DNA of 64,000 nucleotides from Octopus vulgaris (GCA_951406725.2 OX597816.1:76942001-77006000), one strand, 5' to 3'; positions 33,800 through 60,468 are shown, counted from the stretch's first letter. Numbers and translations: made by a program. Notes: generated by a model not told the origin, from the letters alone.

Positions 33800-34124
33800 T
33801 ACGTAGATATATAAATAGATACATAAATATGCATCTACATACATGCAAGCATGCATACATATATACACACACAAACATTTATGTGTGTGTGTATAAATAA
33901 ATGTATATATACGTTCGATGTACATAAAGAAGTTCGATAGTATGTCTGTGTATATAGGTGTGTGCTCGAAGAAAATATATATGAAGAAACAATAAAAAGT
34001 CTAGTGAAAAAATGTTCAAATACAAATAGTGGGTGAAGTATATTTAGATAAGGATTATCGATAAGGATATAATTGAGAAAATGAAAAGGAACATTGAGAC
34101 GGAGAGAAAATTACACACGGTGTT

Positions 34125-34229
<105 letters not shown>

Positions 34230-34305
34230 CAGATAGATAGATAGATAGATAGACAGACAGACACGCTCATAAACACACACACATATACATACACACATAT
34301 AACAA

Positions 34306-34353
<48 letters not shown>

Positions 34354-34394
34354 CACAGACAGAGAGAGTGACATACATACAGGCTGACAGACAA

Positions 34395-34640
34395 GCAGAG
34401 GTCTTTAACTGAGCGACATCGATGGCAGGTGGGCGTCTAATACGAACACGATCTTCAAGGCTCAGGTCTTCGCTGCGAAATTGTTTAAACCACTTTCGAG
34501 CTGACCACTCACTGGACATTTCCTCACCAAACGTTTCGCTGATATCACGAACAGCTTCAGCTGTTTTACGTCCTTTTTTTGAAGTTAAATAGCAAAATTG
34601 CTCGAATATCGCGTTTTGGCAGTTCCATTTCAGATGATTG
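34395..34640 (-). pseudogene. Mariner transposase N-terminal HTH fragment
   Basis: KKGRKTAEAVRDISETFGEEMSSEWSARKWFKQFRSEDLSLEDRVRIRRP (the WFxxFRSGxxxLED.RxGRP motif). Confidence 0.8.
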
Positions 34641-35137
34641 TAAAAACAATCAAAAAGTATCAATGTTAATTTATTGATGCATTTAGGCAAGTCTATGTAT
34701 GTGTTATGAGACAATTGCAAAAAAATGTTTTAAACAAAATTCAAAAATTCTGCAAAAATCCGGTACAAATTCTTCAAAACGTTGCTTACTTTTTACTCAA
34801 CCTGATAGAAGCCGTAGGTGTATTTGGGGTGTTTTGTTTCTCTCTTTCACAAGCAGACGTGGAAGCAGTGGCTGTAGTAGTAGCAGTAGCAGCAGCAAGA
34901 GGAAGATCAGCGGAAGTAGTAGTGACATCAGATTTAGTAGTAACAATATTTTTTCTCCTGAAGTGGTTGAAAAGTGGGCGGCAAATTATATGAATTTTGC
35001 TAGGGTTTTGTTTGTTTTTCTTGATGCGTTGCTGTTAAGATTTGACATCGGTAAATCTATATAAGGGGAAGACCGTTAAATTTAGTTGTTTTTCAGCAGC
35101 ATAAGTATCGATGGCCTATTTCTCTCTGCTTCGGTGC

Positions 35138-44737: not shown

Positions 44738-45423
44738 AAGCAACAAGACGGGTAAGGGTGATTAGATGATGGTCTAGGGCTTAGACCTTGGAAAACAACT
44801 TTGGTCGTCTTATTGTAGTCAAGGGCTCTTCGTTGACGCCCGACACCACTGGGAGGTGGCCTTCGAAGTCGCTGGAAATGGAGATCTCCAAGTCCAAATT
44901 CTTGAACGGCTGTTGCTGTTGCTGGTGTTGTTGCTAATGGCAGTGATATTTAACCCCATACCAATCATGATCGACCAAAGATCAAAGGGTTTTCATCCGT
45001 CAGTATTCCATCTTTTGTTCAAACATAATTTATCTAGGACTACATTATCAAATGTGTCTTCCCCATTTGTTTTTGTTCCTTTTTGTGGGGGTGCAGTTAA
45101 GACTTTGGTTTGTGGGAGACTTGGCTTCAGGTGAAGAGATTACGGAGAGTTTTTCTCGTTGCTCCTCCAAGTAGGGAGTTAGGTAACGTCGACTACTTAG
45201 AGCATTATTATAATCATAGTAGCAACACTGTGTGGTGGAATATGAGACCAGTAACAGAATATAAACAACCGCAGTTACTGTTGCCTTGTGGTCTTGCACT
45301 ATTACTTTCACATTTTTTTTTACAGAGCTGAGGGTAAGCAAACATTATCTTCAAGAAATAACCGCCATAACAAATCAGGTTTCGCATTCAGGAAAGAGTA
45401 CAAAAAAAAGGGTTGAACAACTA

Positions 45424-46671
45424 CGAGGGGCGTTCAATAAGTAATGCCCCTGACCCACTTCCCATAGCAATAGAGCAACGAAACTTGGCACAGTTATTGG
45501 ACTTTTTCTACGTATTGGACTTTTTCTCAGAGTAACGCATTTCTCCCATTGTTTGATGCAGCTCTGGAGACCGTTTTTGTAGAAGACCCCAGCTTGGTCC
45601 TCCAACCACGACGTGACTTCAGAAATCAAGGCTACATCATCTGGGAAACGCTTTACTTTCAAAAATAACTTCATGGCTGAGAAGAGGTGAAAATCAGAGG
45701 GTGCAAGGTCAGGAGATTAGGGAGGAGTTCATAGCCGCACGCCTGTGCTTCTGATCTGGCGACACGCGAGTTGTGGACCGGAGCGTTGTCCTGCTGAAGG
45801 AGGATGCCTTTGCTGATCTTGCCCCGCCTCTTGATTTTGATAGCTTCTCTTAATTTCCTCAAAAGTGAAGCATAATAGGCTCCTGTAATTGTGGTACCCT
45901 TTGCCAGGAAATCTGGCATCACTACTCCGTCCTGGTCCCAGAAGGTTGTGAGCATGACCTTGCCAGCGGAGGGCTGCACCCTTGCCTTCTTTGGAGGAGG
46001 TGAGTCACGGTGATTCCACTGCATTGACTGGGCTTTGGTCTCTGGATCATAGTGATGGACACAGGTTTCATCCTGTGTAATCAGTCTTTTGAAAAATTTT
46101 GACTCATCTTCTTGGCACATCACCAAATTCATCCTCGAGCACTCGACGCGTTCTTGCTTCTGGAAAGGTGTGAGCAACCTGGGAATCCGTCTGGCAGACA
46201 CCTTTTGAATATGCAAATGGTCATGAATGATAGTTTCCACAGATCCGGTACTAATCTTGACCTCATGGGCTATTTGGCGAATAGTTATGCGTCGATCTTC
46301 CAAAATGGCAGCCTCAACTTGACGGACAGGTGCTTCATCAATGGCAGAAGGGGGGCGACCAGATCTGGGAGCTGTTTCCACAGAATTCTGACCATGTTTG
46401 AATTCACGATGCCAGCGTTTTACAAGGTCATATGATGGGGCATCATCACCATAAGTTACTTTCATTTCATCAAAAGTCTCCCGTGGTGTGCATCCTTTCA
46501 AATACAAAAACAGGATCACTGCTCGACACTCAACAGGCTCCATTTCACACTTGACTCAGTTCAAACACCTGTAAATCAGAAACTACAATTAGTTCAGAGC
46601 TGTAATTTGCCACTTAATCTATAATGATATAAATAATTGCAAGTGGGTCAGGGGCATTACTTATTGAACGC
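45424..46671 (-). mobile_element. Near-complete mariner (DD34D) transposon, ~1.25 kb
   Basis: TIRs (TA)CGAGGGGCGTTCAATAAGTAATGCCCCTGACCCACTT and AAGTGGGTCAGGGGCATTACTTATTGAACGC; the 46641-46671 TIR lacks its terminal 6 bp. Confidence 0.95.
45510..46543 (-). pseudogene. Mariner transposase with a frameshift
   Basis: ORF 46543-45671: HTH, RRIPRLL, ITQDET, QDNAPVH; a ~10-bp deletion removes HPPY; SPDLAPSDFHLF and the C-terminus (QWEKCV) continue in the frame of ORF 45674-45375. Confidence 0.9.
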
Positions 46672-54713: not shown

Positions 54714-55680
54714 TTCTTTCATCACATCTCCCTTTTGAGATTTTCCTTCCAGGGAAGTTTAATATTTCTTCCGTTTAGGCACTACTTCCAACTGTTCTGT
54801 TAGCTTCCTCTTTCTTGTGCCACTACGCATAGGTTCGATTTCTTCTGACGTTGGAACATCAAAGGTGTCATAGAACACTTCTATGCGTATATCTTTTCTT
54901 TTTTCCGTATAACTATTTTTAAGCTGGTTTAAATTTCTTGTGTGTTCCCATGTTCAACTCTTATGTATCTGAAAGCGATCTTTTTCTTCAGTCTTATCAG
55001 CGTCATGTCTTACATTTATAATCCCCAGGCATTCTTCATCCACTGTCAGTAGATTTAATTTTTGGTCCCGTTCTAATTTTGTTAATATGCGGAAACGTAT
55101 ATCAGCATCTTTTCTAGCAGTAACCCGTAAACAACAATTAGACATTTGAACAAATCCGAGGTTAATTCATTTAATTTGAAGTTTCACAATTTCTGTTAAC
55201 GACCCGAGAATAGGTGACGAAATCTTCATCGTCATTTTTAACTAAATTTAAACACTGCCAACAAGTATTGAATAAGGAACTTCTTTCCCTGAAAATTTTC
55301 GATAAAAATTGAATGTTTCATTGAAACAAATCCCACCTGGTTCCTTCGGTAGAATATAATTACAGCATTTTTCGAGTTCGACAGGGGATAACTTTCTTAA
55401 AAGTAGTTGCACCTTCTTTTCGTCATTCCAGTTTTTGGATTTTTCTTTGAAGATTTCTTCGAATCTTCTAAAGTATGCAGAAAAAGTAGTTCCTTCTTCT
55501 GGGTTGTAAATAAATTCTCCAATTGACGTTGCTACGCCGTCTGACGAGAATGAACCTGAAGTTATTTCAGACTTCTTCAACATTACTTCCAATAACTGTT
55601 GATATTGTTGTTGTTGCTGTTGTAGTTAGTGGTGTAACTGAACCACGCAAGCTTCCATGTTAATGATTTTTTTCTTTGAT
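54176..55680 (-). mobile_element. Internally deleted Gypsy LTR retrotransposon relic (gag, pol C-terminus, PPT, 3' LTR)
   Basis: gag EFIYNPEEGTTFSAYFRRFEEIF..DEKKVQLLLRKL..NYILPKEP and DADIRFRILTKLE..EEC; C-terminus IEVFYDTFDVP..PKRKKY*; PPT AAAGGGGGTGA followed by TGT at ~54620; LTR outer boundary uncertain. Confidence 0.75.
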
Positions 55681-56241
55681 TTGAAAAATCAGCAAAAACA
55701 CCAAAATGAAAAAGACAAATGAAAATATACGAAAAAAAAAACGATTAACTACGTACCAATGGTTTCACTTGTTAATATCTACGTATACAAACACGCAGAT
55801 ATCCGCAAGATCGTCAGCGTACGTAGGTAATCGATTTTTTTATTTCGTATAGTTCCATTTGTCTTGTTCATTTTTACATTTTGACGTTTTTGCTGAGATT
55901 TTTTTGGAGAACACATTCTTCGTGGTAATGGCGATTTGACGTCTATGTTTAGCATATTAGGTGTCCACTTTAGTGGTCATTCCTCTTAATTTTGTATGTA
56001 ATACAATTTTTAATCTTCGGATTTTTTATATATGCAAAGCCATTGCTTTTAATTTATTAATATCAATTTCTACCTTTATTATTTAATTTCATATGTATAT
56101 ATATATATATATATACATATCACAATCAAGGAACGGCCATAATAGGCCATTCACCCACTAGAAATAACAGCCAAAAGCTTTAACCGCAAAATAACATTAA
56201 TTCCGTAAACCAGGAGAAAATTGAAAAACATTTACCCTGTA

Positions 56242-56348
56242 ATTTCTTAGACGATGCACCGTTTCATCTACCGTTTAATGGTAAACTAACCTGATTAAAT
56301 TAAATCAAGCCAATCCACCATAGGCCCTTAGACTCATCAGTAAGAAAT
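56242..56348 (-). ncRNA. Type I hammerhead ribozyme, intact
   Basis: Reverse complement of the 57573 motif. Confidence 0.9.
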
Positions 56349-56732
56349 AGCCAAGTCGGAATAGATATTTTTCACGAGGCATTCCTCTTGCTACCTCGGC
56401 AATATCTGACCTAAAATTTTCAAATCGTCGCACTCGCGCCAAATTTATCGGCAGCAAATAAATATAAGCCACCGATTCCATTATGGAACTAACCAGAAAA
56501 TTCATAATTAATCAATATAGGGTGGCAAAAAAAATTTTGTAGAATTCTTTTGCCACCAGCGGCCTAGTGGGAAAAAATTAAATAGTCATAAACCATTTTT
56601 AAGTTCAACATCACAATCAAGGAACGGCCATAATAGGCCATTCACCCACTAGAAATAACAGCCAAAAGCTTTAACCGCAAAATAACATTAATTCCGTAAA
56701 CCAGGAGAAAATTGAAAAACATTTACCCTGTA

Positions 56733-56839
56733 ATTTCTTAGACGATGCACCGTTTCATCTACCGTTTAATGGTAAACTAACCTGATTAAATTAAATCAAG
56801 CCAATCCACCATAGGCCCTTAGACTCATCAGTAAGAAAT
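56733..56839 (-). ncRNA. Type I hammerhead ribozyme, intact
   Basis: Reverse complement of the 57573 motif, 491 bp from the previous copy. Confidence 0.9.
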
Positions 56840-57572
56840 AGCCAAGTCGGAACAGATATTTTTCACGAGGCATTCCTCTTGCTACCTCGGCAATATCTGA
56901 CCTAAAATTTTCAAATCGTCGCACTCGCGCCAAATTTATCGGCAGCAAATAAATATAAGCCACCGATTCCATTACGGAACTAACCAGAAAATTCATAATT
57001 AATCAATATAGGGTGGCAAAAAAAATTTTGTAGAATTCTTTTGCCACCAGCGGCCTAGTGGGAAAAAATTAAATAGTCATAAACCATTTTTAAGTTCAAC
57101 ATCACAATCAAGGAACGGCCATAATAGGCCATTCACCCACTAGAAATAACAGCCAAAAGCTTTAACCGCAAAATAACATTAATTCCGTAAACCAGGAGAA
57201 AATTGAAAAACATTTACCCTGTAATTTCTTAGACGATGCACCGTTTCATCTACCGTTTAATGGTAAACTAACCTGATTAAATTAAAAATGGTTTATGACT
57301 TAAAATGGTTTATGACTTAAAAATGGTTTATGACTATTTAATTTTTTTCCCACTAGGCCGCTGGTGGCAAAAGAATTCTACAAAATTTTTTTTTGCCACC
57401 CTATATTGATTAATTATGAATTTTCTGGTTAGTTCCGTAATGGAATCGGTGGCTTATATTTATTTGCTGCCGATAAATTTGGCGCGAGTGCGACGATTTG
57501 AAAATTTTAGGTCAGATATTGCCGAGGTAGCAAGAGGAATGCCTCGTGAAAAATATCTGTTCCGACTTGGCT

Positions 57573-57679
57573 ATTTCTTACTGATGAGTCTAAGGGCCTA
57601 TGGTGGATTGGCTTGATTTAATTTAATCAGGTTAGTTTACCATTAAATGGTAGATGAAACGGTGCATCGTCTAAGAAAT
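57573..57679 (+). ncRNA. Type I hammerhead ribozyme, intact; predicted cleavage after C57671
   Basis: Stem I ATTTCTTA/TAAGAAAT (8 bp); CTGATGA; stem II GTCTA/TAGAT with inserted 19-bp hairpin; GAAAC; near-palindromic stem III ACGGTGCATCGT; GTC. Confidence 0.92.
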
Positions 57680-58063
57680 TACAGGGTAAATGTTTTTCAA
57701 TTTTCTCCTGGTTTACGGAATTAATGTTATTTTGCGGTTAAAGCTTTTGGCTGTTATTTCTAGTGGGTGAATGGCCTATTATGGCCGTTCCTTGATTGTG
57801 ATGTTGAACTTAAAAATGGTTTATGACTATTTAATTTTTTTCCCACTAGGCCGCTGGTGGCAAAAGAATTCTACAAAATTTTTTTGCCACCCTATATTGA
57901 TTAATTATGAATTTTCTGGTTAGTTCCGTAATGGAATCGGTGGCTTATATTTATTTGCTGCCGATAAATTTGGCGCGAGTGCGACGATTTGAAAATTTTA
58001 GGTCAGATATTGCCGAGGTAGCAAGAGGAATGCCTCGTGAAAAATATCTGTTCCGACTTGGCT

Positions 58064-58170
58064 ATTTCTTACTGATGAGTCTAAGGGCCTATGGTGGATT
58101 GGCTTGATTTAATCTAATCAGGTTAGTTTACCATTAAACGGTAGATGAAACGGTGCATCGTCTAAGAAAT
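58064..58170 (+). ncRNA. Type I hammerhead ribozyme, intact; predicted cleavage after C58162
   Basis: Same motif 491 bp downstream. Confidence 0.92.
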
Positions 58171-59318
58171 TACAGGGTAAATGTTTTTCAATTTTCTCCT
58201 GGTTTACGGAATTAATGTTATTTTGCGGTTAAAGCTTTTGGCTGTTATTTCTAGTGGGTGAATGGCCTATTATGGCCGTTCCTTGATTGTGATGTTGAAC
58301 TTAAAAATGGTTTATGACTATTTAATTTTTTCCCACTAGGCCGCTGGTGGCAAAAGAATTCTACAAAATTTTTTTTTGCCACCCTATATTGATTAATTAT
58401 ATATATATATATATATTGCATATACATATATTGCATATAATATTTAGTTTCATCAGTGTATTATTATAATTACGTTTCTTACAATTTCTATGGCACATTG
58501 TATTGATTCCATATATATTTAACTCCTTAACAGCTAACAGTCTTATTTTACTTACGTCTTTCCCTCGCCTCTCTACCATAACCACACAACCTCCGTTCTG
58601 TGTTCTTTTATTTACTGACATCCACTTAGCTTATCTTTCTCACTGCTGCCTCTATTCATTTCATTTTGAATTAGTATTCTTTTTTCCTATTTCTCCCCTC
58701 ATCTCTATTTCTACTCCACATTTATACGCTCTAAGTACAAACTGTAGACACAAGGTTTTGAATGTTCTCTTTAGTTAGTGAAATCATTTTTTTTTTACTC
58801 TTCGTCTCTAATCATACCTTAACTCCATTTATTAATGTACTTTCACTCAATCACCCTTCACACGCCTTTATCGATCTTTCTTTATATTTAAAAATATTTT
58901 ATGCATAGTGTCATTGAATAGAACCATTTAAGGAACCTTGCATTGTAGAATATATATCAGCAGCTACTCAAATTATTCCTTTCATTCATGATCGTTCTTT
59001 CTACTTATATTTTTAAGATACATATAATTATGTATACTATATACTAATATATACTAAATACTATGATATATACGTGAATATATATTTATACATATGCCTA
59101 AGTTCCTTTCAAAGAATTGGAAAATTCCTTCAATAACCTGCCAATATTTTTTCCAGTCTAATAATGTCAGGTATAAGCGAAATAATTCAGTTGCCCTTTT
59201 ACATATTTCTGAAGACTTTTTTGTTTTTCGTTTAACCTTCCATGCTTTCTATAAGCTTCCTACTCGGTTTCTCGCGTTTCTTCTATCATTCAAATTTAGT
59301 TCGTTATGCTACGTGGTT

Positions 59319-59739: not shown

Positions 59740-59744
<5 letters not shown>

Positions 59745-60468
59745 TTAGCTGCTATTTCTACTAAGTTCAGTATGTGGCAAAGTAATTTATTTTACTAAGC
59801 CCTAATTATATAATGTAATATTTTGAATTCGCCTTAAATGGTCCTTTTACATACTGAACACTTGGTGAAATTGATTAATTAATTTTACCCTCAATTGTTG
59901 ATATTATAATTCATTTCTCTCGGTCATACTGCCTCGGTTCTCGCGGTTAAAATATAATGTTTGCTAGATAGACCACGTGGGTGGAATGGGGAGTGCAGAA
60001 TTTTACGCCTGCGCATTTTGAATTTGTTGACACTGTTAGTTGGAGTGGTTCATCTGAAGCGACAAGTTCGCTGATAGGTAAAGTTCCTTCTTTTTAGTGT
60101 TTCCAAATCCAAATTAAGAAATTTTGAGCTTACGAAAGAAATACTGATTTTATTTGGCTAATCTTGAAACGTTGACGTACTCAAACGATCTATGTACTTG
60201 TGATATTTTTCTGTATTTACCCCCAAACCTTCGTGAGCTGTCTGGAGTAAACATTATCTGAGAGAAATTTTCTTTAAGTAGTAGAAATGCTAAGAAAATT
60301 TTTTGGGGCTGCTATTTCTACTAAGTTCAGTATGTGGCAAAGTAATTTATTTTACTAAGCCCTAATTATATAATGTAATATTTTGAATTCGCCTTAAATG
60401 GTCCTTTTACATACTGAACACTTGGTGAAATTGATTAATTAATTTTACCCTCAATTGTTGATGTTATA
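59740..60468 (+). mobile_element. Retrozyme-like element: 560-bp unit plus ~160-bp terminal direct repeat in (TA)n
   Basis: GCTGCTATTTCTACTAAG...TTTTACCCTCAATTGTTGAT at 59748-59902 and 60308-60462, essentially identical. Confidence 0.8.
60123..60185 (+). ncRNA. Type I hammerhead with core G5U substitution
   Basis: TTTGAG-CTTACGA-AAGA...TCTT-GAAAC-GTTGAC-GTA-CTCAAA; stems I, II and III all pair. Confidence 0.7.

Follow-up and report, generated by a model that had tools for sequence, protein, structure and literature searches.

A Penelope-type reverse transcriptase (RT) and endonuclease, borrowed from another element, probably wrote the two-armed insertion described here: it would likely have used the two ends of a severed TA repeat as primers on a single RNA, at two fixed sites, and copied that RNA, likely a circular 491-nt monomer, repeatedly. 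The insertion lies in a 64,000-nt window (the whole stretch of Octopus vulgaris DNA that was analysed) and belongs to a family of roughly a thousand in the genome, built from a 491-base repeat that encodes no protein and bears a hammerhead ribozyme motif. The family is new, but its kind is known: it falls among the animal non-LTR retrozymes, which are non-autonomous Penelope-like elements (PLEs).

We number the unit from window position 57672, the first base after the predicted ribozyme cut. The minus arm (56119-57286, minus strand) contains 2.38 units of period 491, about 99% alike, and runs from a 5' end at unit 437 to a 3' end at unit 131, the first putative RT start site. The plus arm (57315-58400, plus strand) contains 2.21 units of the same period and a similar degree of likeness and runs from unit 137 to a 3' end at unit 237, the second putative start site. 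The arms are head-to-head and point outward from a central junction, just as a first-pass annotation of this DNA had described. That junction (57282-57335) combines 5 nt of microhomology with two extra templated copies, 17-18 nt long, of unit 139-156. The (TA)n flanks noted at that stage are found on both sides: the left target (56096-56118) adjoins the minus-arm end, and at 58400-58402 the end of the plus arm meets the right target. A 106-nt 'tail' (58294-58400, plus strand; unit 132-237) extends the plus-arm end only. Between the two predicted cuts of the plus arm lies one complete monomer (57672-58162, plus strand; 491 nt, 37% GC), the predicted linear or circular RNA, which folds better than shuffled sequences on both the sense (z -5.85) and the antisense strand (z -4.22). 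The unit's longest stop-free stretch is 68 codons and tblastn found no match to a PLE RT/GIY-YIG protein within the window, in line with the earlier statement that no RT is encoded.

Other elements share the window. A 294-codon Mariner/Tc1-type transposase frame with Transposase_1 and HTH_48 matches lies at 45671-46555 (minus strand), and pieces resembling such a frame lie at approximately 34055-34729 and 45375-45716. A 125-codon frame with a DUF7083 match (55248-55625, minus strand), 500 bp to the left of the retrozyme insertion, is presumably a gag-like relic of an LTR element. Beyond the insertion, a 168-nt direct repeat (59741-59908 and 60301-60468; 98% alike, 560 bp apart) adjoins (TA)n and could be another small PLE-type insertion.

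The ribozyme motif is present on one polarity of the unit only. The four complete type I hammerheads reported in the first pass are all there, with their 8-bp stem I and GUC triplet: two on the minus strand, at 56242-56348 (predicted cut after 56250) and 56733-56839 (after 56741), and two on the plus strand, at 57573-57679 (after 57671) and 58064-58170 (after 58162). Their CUGAUGA cores stand at -56340, -56831, +57581 and +58072. A fifth hammerhead (57224-57286, minus strand) is reduced to its 3' half and has no CUGAUGA core; its cut site, at 57232, was crossed. In the copy at 57573-57679, a 5-bp stem II carries a long hairpin insert and stem III is nearly palindromic. The Rfam model Hammerhead_1 finds all four motifs at 22 bits (E about 0.04); the long hairpin insert in helix II keeps them short of its gathering score of 34. 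At gathering score, Rfam returns nothing in the window, and we dismissed weak miRNA, snoRNA and RalA matches there as chance.

Across the family, the hammerhead core is intact in 158 of the 161 units that cover it. Between subfamilies, any of the four bases is found at N7 and C or A, never G, at position 17; stems I and II show compensatory changes from A-U to G-C, and substitutions on both sides of the stem III loop leave it palindromic. Counted by alignment cells, both-side changes reach 11, a figure attained by 0 of 500 shuffles; counted by pairs changed on both sides they reach 4, which 75 of 500 shuffles attain, from few events and related rows. The alignment includes a row truncated at a junction (L200) and one with a deletion (L231), which lower the pairing figures. 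These patterns of substitution suggest that the motif is under selection across retrozyme subfamilies. In the folded monomer, stem III has a pair probability of at most 0.01 and the active hammerhead fold lies 7 kcal/mol above the minimum free energy. Thus, with stem III so weak and the active fold so unfavoured, the models point to cleavage that likely proceeds through a dimer or with the help of a protein. Both routes have precedents in the available text of earlier studies: amphibian hammerhead motifs were reported to cleave as dimers (PMC7229834), and protein-assisted cleavage is described in PMC11167929. Counting against efficient cutting, self-cleavage was seen in only 1 of 9 Xenopus dimers by Li et al. 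2026 (bioRxiv 10.64898/2026.07.22.740005).

Further hammerhead repeats came to light. Contigs of the public runs X2, X4 and X6 have loose ends near unit 345-360, belonging to relatives with a different hairpin directly upstream of the hammerhead, which suggests more divergent retrozyme subfamilies. A second, older hammerhead family (L262, L263, L266) has a long helix II and inverted copies and is unrelated in sequence to the 491-bp unit. A genome-wide Hammerhead_1 search in which 73 candidates were scored gave 6 matches, none related to the unit.

The unit is far from single-copy. Scoring 40 of 1007 candidate places gave 234 matches to it, and exact hammerhead 22-mers occur 425 times in the genome (control 0). 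The ends were counted as well: the exact pattern of an arm ending at unit 131 and followed by TA occurs 484 times (control 1), and that of an arm ending at unit 237, likewise followed by TA, at least 947 times (control 0). We examined the insertions in two sets. The first comprises 39 loci chosen for similarity to the unit and not for their ends, the 18-unit array on contig C10 being kept apart. Among its 24 loci with two arms of at least 100 bp each, 20 pair a 131 end with a 237 end, and the 15 loci with a single arm end, without exception, at 131 or 237. The second comprises 140 stretches taken in genome order by their ends, with the anchor end fixed by selection and the partner end free. 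Of its 91 head-to-head pairs, 81 are 131+237, one is 237+237, none is 131+131 and nine have some other end. A (TA)3 follows the fixed arm end in 219 of 223 sampled ends, anchor ends having been selected by pattern; 13 of 236 arms with other 3' ends, one duplicate arm and the 10 pairs other than 131+237 were left out. Sites 131 and 237 both end in AT, each after a GC-closed hairpin and a UUGAUU motif. The picture of a young, multicopy retrozyme lodged in (TA)n and mobilised in the manner of a PLE thus gains genome-wide support from these fixed ends. Some TA tracts are crowded: at L131, L132, L158 and L169 at least two insertions are stacked in one tract, or the arms are rearranged, and PLEs and retrozymes often occupy a common tract (L040, L054, L060, L134, L139).

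Could the inversion be a chimera of long reads? The junction at 57282-57335 is absent among the contig joints listed, in itself an uninformative result. However, 81 different junctions obey one end rule, inversion-type joints appear in contigs from two independent runs, and contigs of X2 and X6 show both TA-flanked ends. Such joints and ends in independent runs speak against an assembly artefact for the family, and we give a chimeric origin of the inversion virtually no credence. The runs came from a public collection in which 24 were found, 20 with part of the stretch and 13 with at least half of its words, all as contigs; four were compared, and contigs carry no strand, RNA-end or circle information.

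The 81 sampled junctions comprise 42 overlaps, 31 inserts and 8 blunt joins. In long arm pairs the two inner ends are unrelated and uniformly spaced (n=35, KS p=0.71). Since there are two distinct fixed start sites and independent inner ends, each arm is best taken for a separate cDNA and not for a copy inverted later. The first-pass annotation had described the element as copied by rolling circle and then inverted, and the evidence divides that proposal. Ribozyme cleavage and a rolling, end-less template gain indirect support from the genome, through the stop pattern and the likeness between units described below; the later inversion does not agree with the two fixed sites and the unrelated inner ends. 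Such an inversion would arise if a single cDNA folded back or primed itself, and self-priming on an antisense template has been proposed for PLE inversions (PMC3846280). Exact palindromes of the kind this predicts occur at 3 of the 35 junctions between arms that both cross the cut site, and loci at which both arms stop there are near-palindromes. The other 32 crossing pairs have unrelated inner ends, though, and both arms of the short loci end where the 5' end of the sense RNA is predicted, each having its own fixed 3' site. A separate 3' site for each arm is what extension of both strands from two sites would leave, as described in PMC11167929. A fold-back is thus very improbable.

Separate cDNAs are also what the layout of PLEs would lead one to expect. 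One inverted 5' copy and a one-sided 106-nt tail match that layout: an inverted 5' copy, a 30-40-bp tail at a single end and (TA)n targets are given as PLE traits in PMC8557442, and the inversion with its one-sided tail appears likewise in PMC3846280. The purified PLE protein of Anolis, a predicted dimer, was found to cut the two target strands and extend each of them, beginning at a pair of internal RNA positions that lie one tail length apart (PMC11167929).

Where the arms stop tells us about the RNA they copied. Stops occur at about 2 per kb nearly everywhere, but for arms that have yet to cross the cut site the rate at unit 1-30 rises to 9.9 per kb; the hazard table omits the first 25 nt of each arm, and the lap-by-lap counts use stricter duplicate removal. 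On first approach, 43 of 169 arms stop at unit 1-30 (background 6.2%, p=2e-15). On later laps only 5 of 85 do so, which is at background (95% CI 2-13%; p=3e-6 against the first-lap rate). The two arms of a pair behave alike, with 14 pairs stop/stop, 35 cross/cross and 3 discordant (p=1e-9); in 29 further pairs one arm is too short for the call. Across 357 motif-matched crossings no bases are added at the cut, and 3 have a 1-nt indel a few bases past it. Arms that stop have near-identical crossers at other loci (0-3.6% apart, 25 arms compared). Within the stop zone, the stops that fall at unit 16-28 gather on an AT stretch that is complementary to itself and promotes joining, so this joining hotspot shapes the stop positions.

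The simplest reading is that two RNAs were copied, a linear one starting at the ribozyme cut and one with no end there. About a fifth of the arms would, on our best reading, be copies of cut linear monomers, and most others would have rolled round a monomer that was likely circular. Three simpler accounts were rejected, namely an RT that pauses at the ribozyme, multimers that are partly cleaved and an end-to-end jump of constant probability, because each predicts excess stops on every lap, unlike the 5 of 85 seen later. A mini-element spanning unit 1-237 was rejected as the source of the short class because the stoppers' junctions differ from locus to locus and stoppers nest in crosser subfamilies. 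The stops at the cut may also be explained by a transcription start that chances to fall on the cut site.

Units within an insertion resemble one another more than they resemble units elsewhere. In the young set, units of one arm diverge by 0.36%, units on opposite sides of the inversion by 0.30% and units of different loci by 1.10%; among the 81 paired loci the corresponding values are 0.62%, 0.67% and 5.53%. At three subfamily sites in the young set, mixing is seen in 2 loci, each time at an arm edge, whereas shuffles give 88 mixed loci on average. Fifteen locus-private variants are fixed in 11 loci, and 7 of them, in 6 loci, are fixed on both arms. The unmixed subfamily variants and the private variants fixed on both arms point to a bottleneck of a single monomer per insertion.

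This bottleneck bears on a reading that keeps two-site priming by a PLE enzyme but dispenses with circles: the long arms would come from uncut linear multimers and the short class from cut monomers. In its favour, RNA that had not been processed was the main template of the Anolis PLE in vitro (PMC11167929), an array, being uniform within itself, would give uniform transcripts, and the ribozyme fold is weak in the monomer. However, it needs cleavage to be all or none, since partial cutting would give stops at each lap and later laps show 5 of 85; it sits badly with the monomer bottleneck; and the long-armed loci have no common junction. We consider it unlikely.

A different route, proposed for retrozyme arrays in the available text of Li et al. 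2026, is that of a satellite: short copies insert first, and tandem arrays form later by unequal crossover and gene conversion. Some signs of it are there. A one-armed array of about 18 units on contig C10 (G000:C10:17474891-17483867, covered by L033 and L034) shows recurring variant patterns and local amplification, and is a retrozyme insertion becoming a local satellite. At L041, L060, L068 and L069, some unit-level variants are present on both arms without being fixed; together with the amplification on C10, they indicate that conversion acts after insertion. As the origin of the arrays in general, though, this route has little chance of being right. Arm lengths decay smoothly from a fixed 3' end, at about 2 stops per kb; inner ends fall at arbitrary unit positions and the arm classes agree within pairs; an arm that does not reach the length of a unit and an overlap offers no repeat for expansion; and single-unit variants are far more numerous than intermediate ones.

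We envision the copying of circular and cut monomers as follows. Retrozyme arrays would be transcribed, and the hammerhead, whose motif is observed, would cut the transcript between unit 491 and unit 1, probably in a dimer held together by the palindromic stem III; the positions of the arm ends argue for this cut. Monomers would stay linear or become ligated circles. A PLE enzyme, to judge from the activities described in PMC11167929, would sever (TA)n on both strands, and the 3' ends so freed would each prime at an internal AU site, at unit 131 or unit 237, where the fixed ends are seen. On a linear monomer both cDNAs would run off at the cut. On a circle, which the observed stop pattern suggests, they would pass the cut repeatedly until falling off, at about 2 stops per kb. 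Finally, the two cDNA ends would be joined by microhomology or short templated inserts, the junction types that we observe, giving the head-to-head layout. Taking these steps together, we hold it somewhat likelier than an even chance that the genome here is a direct record of a small, ribozyme-made circular RNA templating animal retrotransposition, in which a dimer of a telomerase-like PLE enzyme starts cDNA from either end of a DNA break, at two sites spaced 106 nt on a single molecule that it then travels round, linear self-cut monomers give a separate class of short palindromes, and the helper reads RNA structure, not common sequence.

Potential helpers are plentiful. GIY-YIG frames abound in the genome (148 matches in 150 scored of 6136 candidates), and the young PLE families that have open RT/GIY-YIG frames and (TA)n at their ends number at least three. 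One of them (L101-L116, for example L114:1918-5621) has many intact copies with overlapping frames of 479 and 781 codons, pLTRs of about 510 bp, (TA)n ends, two termini about 40 nt apart and a 40-nt tail; the 781-aa frame is the RT/GIY-YIG protein, and the upstream ORF has no clear Pfam match. A second family encodes 742 aa (L054, L117). A third, L267-L281, is young and very abundant (25460 candidates), with open frames of up to about 1200 codons and a minimal hammerhead-like motif of the UUGAAGA type in its 3' region. Sequence likeness to the unit was found neither in 50 GIY-YIG loci nor in 30 further loci (150 of 6136 candidates scored), and 0 of 22 PLE 3' regions scored above shuffles. The 781-aa and 742-aa families, the L060 and old L042 families and the other GIY-YIG loci compared thus have no sequence in common with the unit, and matches to the unit in L073, L267 and L285 proved to be nearby retrozyme copies. 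By its insertion footprint, the helper would nevertheless be a PLE, although the tail, at 106 nt, exceeds the 30-40 nt known from PLEs and the roughly 40 nt of the 781-aa family in the same genome.

The 2020 study that defined the animal non-LTR retrozymes (PMC7229834) proposed circular RNA templates and PLE helpers for them, and Li et al. 2026, in its available parts, links units to pLTRs, suggests local amplification and calls the mechanism unresolved. For a cycle of cutting, circularisation, reverse transcription of the circle and a PLE helper, the 491-bp family supplies countable footprints. These also bear on the origin of head-to-head inversions in PLEs and on the in vivo relevance of PLE hammerheads. 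The unit makes a small substrate with exact predictions: copying should start at 131 and 237, copies of linear RNA should run off at 1, and circles should yield multimers. If true, an enzyme that writes circular-RNA concatemers into DNA would be relevant to genome-writing. Our literature search, outside which lay many journals, Repbase and Dfam, found no paper about retrozymes in octopuses or other cephalopods, or about retrozyme insertions with two arms.

How does the unit compare with known systems? It is a dispersed, multicopy, non-coding repeat with tandem type I hammerheads and 37% GC (below 45%), and it has no RT plus GIY-YIG ORF such as marks an autonomous PLE. Viroids and plant LTR retrozymes are also small, structured hammerhead RNAs, proposed to be circular, as is the RNA considered here. 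Unlike them, the unit is genome-encoded with its hammerhead on one strand and with no LTR, PBS or PPT evident, and, unlike viroids, it has nothing that points to RNA-to-RNA replication or infectivity.

The animal non-LTR retrozymes, as described in the available text of PMC7229834 and of Li, Clavereau and Pollet 2026, are closest in build: tandem, non-coding units of low GC, each with a type I hammerhead, in genomes that also contain PLEs, for which a circRNA template and PLE mobilisation have been proposed. The unit differs in its long helix II hairpin, and its 491 nt compare with 170-400 nt in PMC7229834 and 51-972 in Li et al. 2026. Xenopus retrozymes have 21 matches to PLE pLTRs in the latter study, whereas none was found for the unit among the loci compared. 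Two-armed insertions, fixed ends and run-off at the cut site do not figure in what is available of either source.

The insertions themselves look like those of EN+ PLEs (PMC8557442, PMC3846280) and of Anolis Poseidon (PMC11167929), which, in the available text, have a head-to-head inverted 5' copy, a one-sided tail, two internal RT start sites with both strands extended, AT-rich or (TA)n targets and a hammerhead in the repeat. Non-autonomous PLEs of Chlamys such as MRC1 differ from the unit in resembling their autonomous partners at the 3' end, and the MRC1 clade has no canonical hammerheads, as far as the accessible parts of PMC8557442 describe it. Compared with EN+ PLEs, the unit has no ORF, a tail of 106 nt instead of 30-40 nt and a full-size, not a minimal, hammerhead, and its arms are multimers of one small unit. 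Whereas uncut RNA dominated for Anolis Poseidon in vitro (PMC11167929), the footprints of the unit favour templates that were either cut or without an end.
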